Assembly (NCBI GenBank): GCA_964599245.1
Contig: CAZREF010000010.1
Location: forward strand, 11,130-75,129
DNA length: 64,000 nucleotides
From: an uncultured Aeromicrobium sp.
GTDB lineage: Bacteria > Actinomycetota > Actinomycetes > Propionibacteriales > Nocardioidaceae
Reading direction: 5' to 3'
Within the stretch, counting starts at the first letter, position 1; the number at the start of each line of letters is the position of its first letter. Position numbers and translations under genes: made by a program. This document shows, in pieces, positions 40,547-42,367 of this stretch. The notes beneath the pieces are model-generated. The model was not told where the DNA came from. It was given only the letters and a program-made list of their open reading frames with translations, and made no database searches.

Positions 40547-42367
40547 ATGACGCGCGTCGACGAGTTCACGAGCTTCTACGAGGCGACCTCGGCGACCTGC
40601 CTGCGTGCCGTCTACGCGATGTGCGGCGACCGTCAGGTGGCGCGCGAGGCGACGGTGGACGCGTACCGGCGCGCGTGGCGCGACTGGGCGAAGATCCGCC
40701 AGCGCGACCCGCTGGCCTACGTCCGGTCGGAGGCCTGGAAGCTCACGGCGCTCAGTCGCGGCACGCACCTGCTGCGCCGGCGCCACGAGGAGGACGCCGA
40801 CACCGCGCTGCTGGAGGCACTGCACGACCTGCCTGCCGACGACCGCAGGCTCATCGTGCTGCTGACGCTCGGCGACACCGACCTCGACCAGGCCTCGCGC
40901 GAGGTCGGCACCTCCGCCGAGAAGGGCATCGAGACCGTCACCGAGGCCCTCGACGCCCTCGAGAAGCGTCTGGGACTCTCGCTCGAGGAGCTCGAGAACC
41001 GGCTCAAGGGCCTGGGCACCGTCACCGGCCAGCTGGCGATGCCCGCGGCCGACGAGGTCCGCTCGGCCGCCCGCCGCGGCCGGCGCCGCAACACCGCCCT
41101 GCTGGTCGCCGCGAGCGTCGTGGCCGTGCTGGCCGGCGGGTTCGTCGCCACCGACGGCGACGCCCTCGCCACCCAGGGCGACCTGCCCTACCGCGAGAAG
41201 CTGGGCGCCGAGCGGCCGGACCTCGTGCTCGAGGCCCGCAAGATCACCGCCGAGAACCTGCTCTCGCCGGCCCAGGTGGCCCGCCTCGACCCGGAGCAGC
41301 GCTGGAGCTCGAGCGGCACCGACGAGGACCCGGACAACGAGACGCCCTACGCGACCTGCCCGCCGCAGCGCTTCGCCGACCCCGACCCGCTGCGCGTGTT
41401 CGTGCGCACCTTCACCGGCAGCGGCGACGCCGACGACCGCGTCGCCGAGTCCATCGAGGTCTCGCGCGACGAGCAGGCGGCCGAGGACGCCTACGACACC
41501 ACGCTGGCCTGGTACGCCGACTGCAGCCACCCCCGGGTGCAGCTGGTCGGCTCCTACGTCGTCAAGCGGCCGTTCGGCGACTTCCAGATCCTGCGGCTGC
41601 GCTCGCACCGCTCACCCCAGAAGGTGTTCACCGTGGGCCTCGCCCACTCCGGCCGGGTGACGAGCACCCTCGTGCACGAGCGCACCGGCGCGCGCGGTCC
41701 GGACATCCAGGACTTCGCGAGCACGCTCAACGCGTCCGTCCAACGCGTGTGCCGCGACAGCGGCGGCCGGTGTGCCAACGACTTCGAGGTCGCCCGCGGC
41801 ACGCCGCCGGAGACCTCGAGCTCCAAGGCGTTCCTCGGCACCGTCGACCTGCCACCCGTCGCCGACATCGACCGCGTCTGGTCGGGGACCCGGCCGCTGC
41901 GGCCCGAGACCAACCCCGCCGCCACGCAGTGCGACGAGGCCGACTTCCGGCGCAAGGGCCTGCAGGAGACCGCGTCCCGCGTGTTCGTCATCCCCGACGC
42001 GGTCGGCGTACCCGCCGAGTTCGGCATCACCGAGACCATCGGCACCTACAGCAGCGAGTCCGCCGCGAAGAAGCTGGTCACGTCCGTGCGCGACGACATC
42101 GACGACTGCCCCGACGCGAACCTCTCCGCCAAGATCAGCCAGGAGAAGAAGATCGAGGGGCCCGGCTTCAGCGGACGCTCGTGGAAGATCAGCCTCGAGG
42201 TCTCCGAGGGTGACCGGGTGACCATCCGCACGGGCATCGTCCGCCGCGGGACGGCCGTCGCGCAGGTCACCATGACCCCGGTGGGCGAGTACGACGTCGA
42301 CCGCGCCACCTGGGAGTCGCTCGTGGAGCGCGCGGGCGAGCGTCTCGCGTACGCGCCGCAGGACTGA
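40547..42367 (+). CDS. ECF-sigma-like N-terminal domain fused to a TM helix and duplicated extracellular Cys-containing domains
   Basis: region-2-like EFTSFYE...VYAMCGDRQVAREATVDAYRRAWRDW...DPLAYVR; region-4-like LLEALHDLPADDRRLIVL; TM ALLVAASVVAVLAGGFVA; GAGGAGG RBS. Confidence 0.75.
   Translation: MTRVDEFTSFYEATSATCLRAVYAMCGDRQVAREATVDAYRRAWRDWAKIRQRDPLAYVRSEAWKLTALSRGTHLLRRRHEEDADTALLEALHDLPADDRRLIVLLTLGDTDLDQASREVGTSAEKGIETVTEALDALEKRLGLSLEELENRLKGLGTVTGQLAMPAADEVRSAARRGRRRNTALLVAASVVAVLAGGFVATDGDALATQGDLPYREKLGAERPDLVLEARKITAENLLSPAQVARLDPEQRWSSSGTDEDPDNETPYATCPPQRFADPDPLRVFVRTFTGSGDADDRVAESIEVSRDEQAAEDAYDTTLAWYADCSHPRVQLVGSYVVKRPFGDFQILRLRSHRSPQKVFTVGLAHSGRVTSTLVHERTGARGPDIQDFASTLNASVQRVCRDSGGRCANDFEVARGTPPETSSSKAFLGTVDLPPVADIDRVWSGTRPLRPETNPAATQCDEADFRRKGLQETASRVFVIPDAVGVPAEFGITETIGTYSSESAAKKLVTSVRDDIDDCPDANLSAKISQEKKIEGPGFSGRSWKISLEVSEGDRVTIRTGIVRRGTAVAQVTMTPVGEYDVDRATWESLVERAGERLAYAPQD

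Follow-up and report, generated by a model that had tools for sequence, protein, structure and literature searches.

The gene described here, at positions 40547 to 42367 (+ strand) of a 64,000-nucleotide stretch of DNA from an uncultured Aeromicrobium sp. (the window), encodes a 606-amino-acid (aa) protein in which a degenerate sigma factor of the extracytoplasmic function (ECF) type is joined to an anti-sigma-like domain, a transmembrane helix and two outer domains. We propose that an ECF51-type sigma gene was fused to its own anti-sigma gene, giving a single-pass membrane protein whose sigma part would be held shut by the built-in anti-sigma helices and would act as a protein-docking module, coupling the pair of outer PknH-fold domains with a partner outside transcription. 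To this whole mechanism, a closed pseudo-sigma adaptor derived from an ECF51 fusion, we assign a probability of about 0.45. Its observed basis consists of the fusion, its conservation, the loss of motifs, a switch of promoter motif, split ancestral forms, selection on sigma2, and persistence of the gene in genomes without an ECF51 sigma or anti-sigma. The output would most likely be envelope or cell-division control, a proposal that draws on the neighbouring gene and on the Streptomyces homologue; expression would be of the housekeeping type, and the outer domains would sense a ligand. The parts of the gene are:

40547..42367, + strand: gene for the 606-aa membrane protein with pseudo-sigma, anti-sigma and two PknH-like domains (open reading frame, homologues, genus-wide comparison)
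40553..40753, + strand: sigma2-like domain, aa 3-69, the best-conserved part; region 2.2 is VARE/ATVD
40754..40801, + strand: linker between sigma2 and sigma4, shortened, aa 70-85 (median R60-R100 span 42, compared with 53 in intact sigmas)
40802..40972, + strand: sigma4-like domain, aa 86-142; recognition helix acidic and non-conserved
40982..41092, + strand: fused anti-sigma domain, aa 146-182; two helices, Arg run at the end
41093..41152, + strand: single transmembrane helix, aa ~183-202 (hydrophobic segment)
41228..41773, + strand: extracytoplasmic PknH/TiME-fold domain 1, aa ~228-409; C271, C326, C402, C409
41804..42352, + strand: extracytoplasmic PknH-fold domain 2, aa ~420-602; C462, C521

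No stop codon interrupts this single frame, and its GC content at third codon positions is 0.97. An earlier note had described one stop-free 606-aa frame with a sigma region-2- and region-4-like N-terminus, an anti-sigma-style linker followed by a transmembrane segment, and two related Cys repeats of PknH type; each of these elements was recovered, as were the peptides it quoted. Residues 3-142 match NCBIfam TIGR02983 weakly (45.8 bits, E 5.6e-12, far under the cut-off of 141.55), and the fused sigma part aligns with intact ECF51 sigmas (hhalign 99.8%, E 7.7e-30). In the AlphaFold model of the protein (mean predicted local distance difference test score, pLDDT, 79), residues 1-146 form a sigma fold that superposes on closed ECF sigma/anti-sigma complexes, for example 5uxx_C (VIA-align Z 15.2, root-mean-square deviation (rmsd) 2.7, 141 residues aligned). 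The closed complexes matched are RpoE-NepR (Z 15.2), CnrH-CnrY (14.1), SigW-RsiW (13.7) and PhyR-NepR (12.6), with rmsd of 2.7-3.5, compared with about 27 for polymerase-bound sigmas. Further helices are predicted at 146-160 and from 168. Residues 147-203 are the top match in the genome to a profile of separate anti-sigma N-termini (E 3.9e-6), and this match, together with the locus states described below, indicates that the fusion derives from a sigma/anti-sigma operon.

One hydrophobic segment was found in 45 of the 48 aligned orthologues and two in the other 3. On the outer side, residues 225-404 superpose on the PknH sensor domain 4esq (Z 14.9, rmsd 3.0, 166 aligned) and on TiME (Z 14.3). 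Pfam PF14032 (PknH-like extracellular) reaches 15.4 bits in the window protein against a cut-off of 27, and matches at E 0.01 or better in 27/48 orthologues. The two outer domains are homologous to each other (hhalign 87.6%, E 3.5e-6) and, judged by that alignment, are a duplication; their six Cys are invariant in 48/48 orthologues. The Cys of the whole protein lie at 18, 26, 271, 326, 402, 409, 462 and 521, with none between 27 and 270. A PDB sequence search with the protein gave 0 matches, and its homologues in the ESM Atlas carry automatic sigma names only.

Degeneracy of the core-binding motif and of the recognition helix, which the note had seen in the one protein, proved to be family-wide when motifs were counted in 78 fused orthologues and 38 intact sigma relatives. 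The region-2.2 acid at position 31 is present in 1/78 fused sequences (38/38 intact), that at 34 in 18/78 (38/38), and Q37, the conserved Gln of region 2.2 that has a role in sigma function, in 3/78 (38/38). T61 is found in 7/78 fused and 36/38 intact sequences, and R65 is kept in 37/78 fused ones. The −35 helix (GTVKARLSR type) is lost throughout: G125 remains in 2/78 (compare 38/38), T126 in 7/78 (38/38), K/R128 in 8/78 (38/38) and R130 in 5/78 (37/38), and the mean charge of helix 124-135 is −1.4 in fused and +3.5 in intact sequences. The R60-R100 span is 42 residues in the fused forms and 53 in the intact ones, a shortening of the linker by 11 residues. Beta-prime is bound by acids of the DAED type (PMC8999054), and ECF transcription requires the linker (PMC6648896); the accessible portions of PMC6648896 and PMC6372665 give no minimum length for threading it through polymerase. 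An ECF43-like conserved Ser/Thr in place of DAED was not found among the 78 fused orthologues (Ser/Thr at 31, 33 and 34 in 5, 8 and 25 of them). The ECF51 label of the intact relatives rests on their −35 motif and on a gene context matching the accessible part of PMC7826278.

The promoter has changed as well. The strict ECF51 motif as printed, GCAACC-N14-18-CGTGTC, was found upstream of 0/38 intact sigmas, and after this failure we adopted the relaxed pattern GCAACC-N15-19-GT, which precedes 31/38 intact sigmas and 0/78 fusions. Four of the seven intact sigmas lacking the motif are second genes of a tandem, and the motif precedes 4/4 split degenerate copies. Conversely, TANNNT lies upstream of 76/78 fusions (23.5 expected) and of 8/38 intact sigmas. 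Judged from sequence, the whole family has lost the ancestral promoter together with the determinants for core binding and for the −10 and −35 elements, and the protein is very probably not an active sigma. This decay is not neutral, since sigma2 has both the highest mean identity (44.6%) and the lowest ratio of nonsynonymous to synonymous substitution rates (dN/dS) of any domain (12 pairs: sigma2 0.10, sigma4 0.23, anti-sigma helices 0.22, outer domains 0.30 and 0.37); sigma2 is under strong purifying selection. At 25.3% identity, few segments are as poorly conserved as the recognition helix.

The fusion gene was found in 41/41 genomes of the genus, so that the one-protein sigma/anti-sigma fusion proposed by the note is no private stop loss. 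In 39 of them it runs end to end in one frame; one copy is cut at a contig end, and one has an apparent one-base frameshift and no start codon. Among Nocardioidaceae a match at E 0.001 was obtained in 134/151 genomes, at least 103 of them end to end in one frame; the split cases (genomes G555 and G135) read as frameshifts. This family-wide recurrence in one frame rules out an assembly artefact or a private read-through. Among 301 genomes sampled across the class, the uninterrupted sigma, anti-sigma and transmembrane form was present in 18/18 Nocardioidaceae plus the window's own genome and in 20/20 of a second family (f24), whose homologues are all named Streptomyces; among the matches listed, it is confined to these two families. 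The named homologues otherwise come from Aeromicrobium and Nocardioidaceae.

Across actinomycetes the slot between DUF6350-purN-purH and sucD-sucC occurs in five arrangements. In the first, (a), an intact sigma is followed by a separate anti-sigma in several families; such intact split pairs occupy the same slot in 14/20 loci (a tandem-copy genus and other sites left out), plus locus L128, where the anti-sigma (L129) has two PknH-like domains. In the second, (b), four genomes of family f11 (L138-L141) carry two pairs in tandem, the first split, with a short linker and an altered −35 helix; this tandem is either a living intermediate or a parallel case. At L139:8367-8930, for example, the first sigma is half-degenerate and split and retains the GCAACC promoter. 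The third, (c), is the fused degenerate form of Nocardioidaceae, which in 10/40 loci (L021-L060) is followed 0-3.2 kb downstream by an intact pair. At L034:2688-4595 we observed an intact ECF51-like sigma and its anti-sigma in one 636-aa frame, joined at the usual gene overlap, which is either a recent second fusion or an assembly error. In the fourth, (d), families f51 and f2 of the same order keep the transmembrane helix and two PknH domains and have no sigma match. The f51 gene (L098-L102) consists of a short basic tail, a transmembrane helix and two PknH-like domains, and the same loss occurred once in Nocardioidaceae (L136); in f2 (L103-L117) the sigma part is replaced by a Pro-rich disordered N-terminus of 150-250 aa with repeated RRA/RRS motifs, which could be a polar or septal targeting signal. 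The fifth, (e), is that of Streptomyces (L118-L127, e.g. L120:5564-6625): an XRE helix-turn-helix, a disordered linker, the pseudo-sigma, the anti-sigma helices, a transmembrane helix and a short tail, divergent from DUF6350 and without PknH domains.

A quick tree of 103 rows gave weak support (57) for a degenerate group; a second tree of 61 rows was made by dropping 21 long or outgroup rows and thinning 21 more. A single origin of the degenerate copies was shown by neither tree. One unpublished genome, G031 (locus L004), contributes one row to alignments A3, A5 and A6 and to the 78-sequence counts and one dN/dS pair; three others (G077, G149, G039) enter genome tallies only, and no conclusion rests on unpublished genomes.

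We then considered whether a cognate sigma accompanies the fusion. In the window's own genome (99.99% complete), profile searches found no intact ECF51-type sigma and no separate anti-sigma of ECF51 type; seven ordinary ECF-like proteins match the ECF51 profile, all below 58 bits and none over the TIGR02983 cut-off. Within the genus a TIGR02983 sigma over the cut-off is present in 9/41 genomes, and the other 32 keep the fusion without one. When 24 candidates were scored per genome with the ECF51 profile, a close ECF51-like sigma (at least 200 bits) was found in 23/73 high-quality family genomes with a full fusion; without G031 the numbers are 72, 23 and 41. An initial statement that 32/73 family genomes lack a related sigma was overstated, 7/10 of those checked outside the genus holding other SigE-family sigmas over the cut-off, and the lack of a cognate sigma is claimed only for close ECF51 sigmas and for the window's own genus.

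These counts bear directly on the best-surviving rival, a transmembrane anti-anti-sigma. In this scheme a signal would lead the pseudo-sigma to sequester the anti-sigma partner of an ECF51/38/39-type sigma, setting that sigma loose; alternatively, the fusion's own anti-sigma helices would be freed and would sequester the sigma. The idea is printed for the −1 gene of ECF51s9, in the same sucD/purN/purH context (PMC7826278), and agrees with the intact pairs downstream of some fusions and with the PhyR-like closed fold (2/48 members match Pfam PhyR_sigma-like, best E 0.006). Slight support also came from structure prediction: the pseudo-sigma of genome G097 with the neighbouring anti-sigma N-terminus scored 0.39, against 0.01 for the best control, with runs agreeing in at least 89% of contacts and a partner pLDDT of at least 64. 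The mark used is reached by 116/157 solved and 2/215 mismatched pairs, with own alignments, and at scores up to 0.60 only by 18 solved pairs and both mismatches; however, the partner tested is a cousin of the built-in helices, and close cousins pass this test. The binding groove moreover tethers its own anti-sigma in cis. Because the window's genome has neither an ECF51-type sigma nor such an anti-sigma, and only 9/41 genus genomes have a TIGR02983 sigma, the printed hypothesis cannot be the whole story; the distribution in the genus contradicts it. Such mimicry is possible outside the genus, and as a general explanation we consider it unlikely.

According to another reading, the tandem PknH-fold module does the work, as an envelope scaffold or ligand binder, and the closed sigma/anti-sigma unit is no more than a folded anchor in the cytoplasm for topology or stability. 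Across three families of the order the transmembrane helix and two PknH domains indeed persist, although the part inside the cell is swapped or lost, as also at L136. But sigma2 is more conserved than the outer domains (whose identities are 31.8 and 37.1%, compared with the value for sigma2 given above) and shows the lower dN/dS, and Streptomyces keeps the pseudo-sigma unit without a PknH domain in 20/20 genomes, which makes this reading improbable. Least probable is an active, divergent tethered sigma freed by intramembrane proteolysis, perhaps working through sigma2 and the −10 element alone: it has the complete sigma2/sigma4 fold, the constraint on sigma2, the retained W47, K/R49, aromatic 58 and R60 on the region 2.3-2.4 side and the precedent of IutY (PMC8999054) in its favour, but the lost region-2.2 acid, Gln, T61, half of R65 and whole −35 helix, the short linker, the lack of a conserved Ser/Thr restoring the charge as in ECF43, the missing autoregulatory motif and the lack of an ECF-type regulon in the genome (promoter motif 2 times, 5-9 in shuffles) speak against it, so that of the two options left by the earlier note the proteolysis-released sigma is not supported and the pseudo-sigma receptor fits best.

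For the closed pseudo-sigma adaptor, the Streptomyces form offers a lead towards cell division. Its pseudo-sigma module is predicted to be one folded unit (pLDDT 95, predicted template modelling score 0.85), and its intergenic regions have in common an inverted GACAC/GTGTC together with a near-palindrome rich in AT, a possible XRE operator. GACAC is the WhiA motif (PMC10243135). SCO4809 is SucD and SCO4813 is PurN (PMC2000904); SCO4810-4812 were not found in the accessible WhiA and WhiB supplements, which are numbered by SVEN. In S. venezuelae SVEN_4485 is sucC, and SVEN_4487 (1353 bp, minus strand) is divergent from the integral membrane gene SVEN_4488. WhiA and WhiB chromatin immunoprecipitation peaks lie between these two genes, and SVEN_4487 changes by log2 −1.95 in a whiB mutant and −0.84 in a whiA mutant, SVEN_4488 staying within −0.21 to +0.39; ftsZ, ftsW and ftsK are also WhiAB-activated (PMC4850268, PMC3781837). 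A fuller version of the proposal, in which the adaptor is permanently closed and docks a cell-division or envelope protein by its sigma2 face, every stage of the conversion is still to be seen at a single locus (an intact split pair, a duplicated pair that is split and half dead, a dead fused receptor, and loss of the sigma part) and SVEN_4487 is a WhiAB-activated sporulation-division factor, appears doubtful to us.

Several points weigh against the proposal. Only gene order and size mark SVEN_4487 as the likely homologue of the fusion, and with an extra XRE helix-turn-helix and no PknH domains the Streptomyces protein is built differently. Upstream of the Nocardioidaceae genes GACAC shows no clear enrichment (34/78, 25 expected), so that for the window gene the division link is one we infer; it may be Streptomyces-specific. 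The divergent DUF6350 protein, which the earlier note had called PerM-like, may be PerM. Actinobacteria conserve PerM, which has a stabilising effect on FtsB (PMC6872210). DUF6350 also flanks intact ECF51 operons, so that it is inherited context, and the envelope hint would draw its indirect support for the window protein, by analogy, from the Streptomyces homologue. A single origin of the Streptomyces and Nocardioidaceae fusions is no more than possible: in the 61-row tree one side of a branch has a Shimodaira-Hasegawa-like approximate likelihood ratio of 96, but the approximately unbiased test gives the alternative p 0.209. Some sigma residues are kept in the fused forms (E/D38 in 70/78, aromatic 58 in 64/78, R60 in 78/78). 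Both promoter patterns were picked after the sequences had been viewed, and related sequences do not count as independent. In a model without polymerase, any ECF sigma may come out closed from AlphaFold. Finally, outside Aeromicrobium sister sigmas of the SigE family are common in genomes lacking ECF51, as the checked genomes indicated.

Among known systems, the nearest printed description is that of the ECF51s9 −1 protein, a transmembrane protein that matches sigma4/sigma2 and PknH-like domains and is suggested as a possible anti-anti-sigma (Casas-Pastor 2021, PMC7826278, Supplementary Text S2). It shares the CoA-binding protein/formyltransferase/AICARFT (sucD/purN/purH) context, adjoins an ECF51 sigma, and is very likely of the same family. 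In its accessible part that report is a remark on the neighbourhood that mentions neither the anti-sigma helices built into the protein nor that the gene occurs almost throughout the family without ECF51, and covers neither the switch of promoter nor the form found in Streptomyces; its setting differs from the window's genome, which lacks ECF51. No experimental study of the fusion family was found in the literature searched, most subscription papers lying outside the search; SCO4810 had no literature match, and 'sven4487' and 'PknH-like' were not found in the literature listed.

PhyR's sigma-like domain, an alphaproteobacterial sigma mimic that binds NepR, shares a non-transcribing closed sigma2/sigma4 used by two-helix anti-sigmas of CnrY/NepR type (4qic_A: Z 12.6, rmsd 3.0, 122 aligned). 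Unlike PhyR, the fusion is membrane-anchored, holds its anti-sigma in cis, often lacks a cognate sigma, derives from ECF51 rather than EcfG, and has no receiver domain, for which no Pfam match was obtained among 48 members. IutY of Pseudomonas putida (ECF243) likewise combines a sigma with an anti-sigma-like extension, a transmembrane helix and an outer domain and is a precedent for sigma/anti-sigma hybrids (PMC8999054), but IutY releases an active sigma whereas the sigma motifs of the fusion are lost. Actinobacterial ECF48/52/53 proteins also have a transmembrane helix in their extension, which contains a zinc finger (PMC7826278); with no Cys between 27 and 270, the window protein has none there. 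By sequence and locus the direct ancestor is the ECF51 sigma and +1 anti-sigma operon, from which the fusion differs in its joined frame, in its degeneracy and in having TANNNT rather than GCAACC upstream. The fold and paired invariant Cys of both outer domains are those of the PknH sensor domain and TiME (Mog1p-PsbP fold), but here the domains are in tandem, lack a kinase and score under the Pfam cut-off. The fusion would work like a closed sigma mimic but falls outside the PhyR, IutY and ECF48/52/53 groups.

PhyR aside, we know of no sigma mimic without a role in transcription that has been well studied. A conserved pseudo-sigma persisting where its cognate sigma has gone implies that the sigma2 fold has a role beyond promoter recognition. 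The database name 'RNA polymerase sigma factor' is corrected for a core gene of Nocardioidaceae and Streptomyces, and the only printed hypothesis found, that in the accessible part of PMC7826278, is challenged. The Streptomyces member opens the proposal to direct tests in a model organism and could be a further component of the division programme under WhiAB control.

Around the gene we noted the following features:

39238..40476, − strand: divergent DUF6350 membrane-protein gene (Pfam DUF6350 and synteny; likely start GTG 40476, longest open reading frame from 40569)
40493..40498, + strand: TAAGGT, putative housekeeping-type −10 (TANNNT; consensus match only)
40517..40522, no strand assigned: CACGCC, conserved intergenic motif (74/78 upstream regions, 25.4 expected)
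40532..40537, + strand: GAGGAG ribosome-binding site, 9 nucleotides 5' of the ATG (sequence)
42418..42457, no strand assigned: 18-bp perfect hairpin, likely a terminator, between the convergent fusion gene and sucD (sequence)
42470..43357, − strand: sucD, convergent neighbour and synteny marker (start approximate)

A sigma-70 promoter scan found no promoter. In the 74 intergenic regions that have it, CACGC(C/G) lies mostly 35-36 or 44-47 nucleotides from a CATNNT element, a helical-turn spacing, which suggests an activator site for the divergent DUF6350 promoter; the DUF6350 gene may be near-leaderless. From 30919 to 48395 the window reads icd, mdh, folD, purH, purN, DUF6350, the fusion gene, sucD, sucC, an M23 peptidase and pcrA/uvrD (names recognised from translations), and this housekeeping order places the fusion gene in the core genome. 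Between folD and purH, at 35726-37114, there are two tandem TetR-like open reading frames whose N-termini, judged by eye, are alike.

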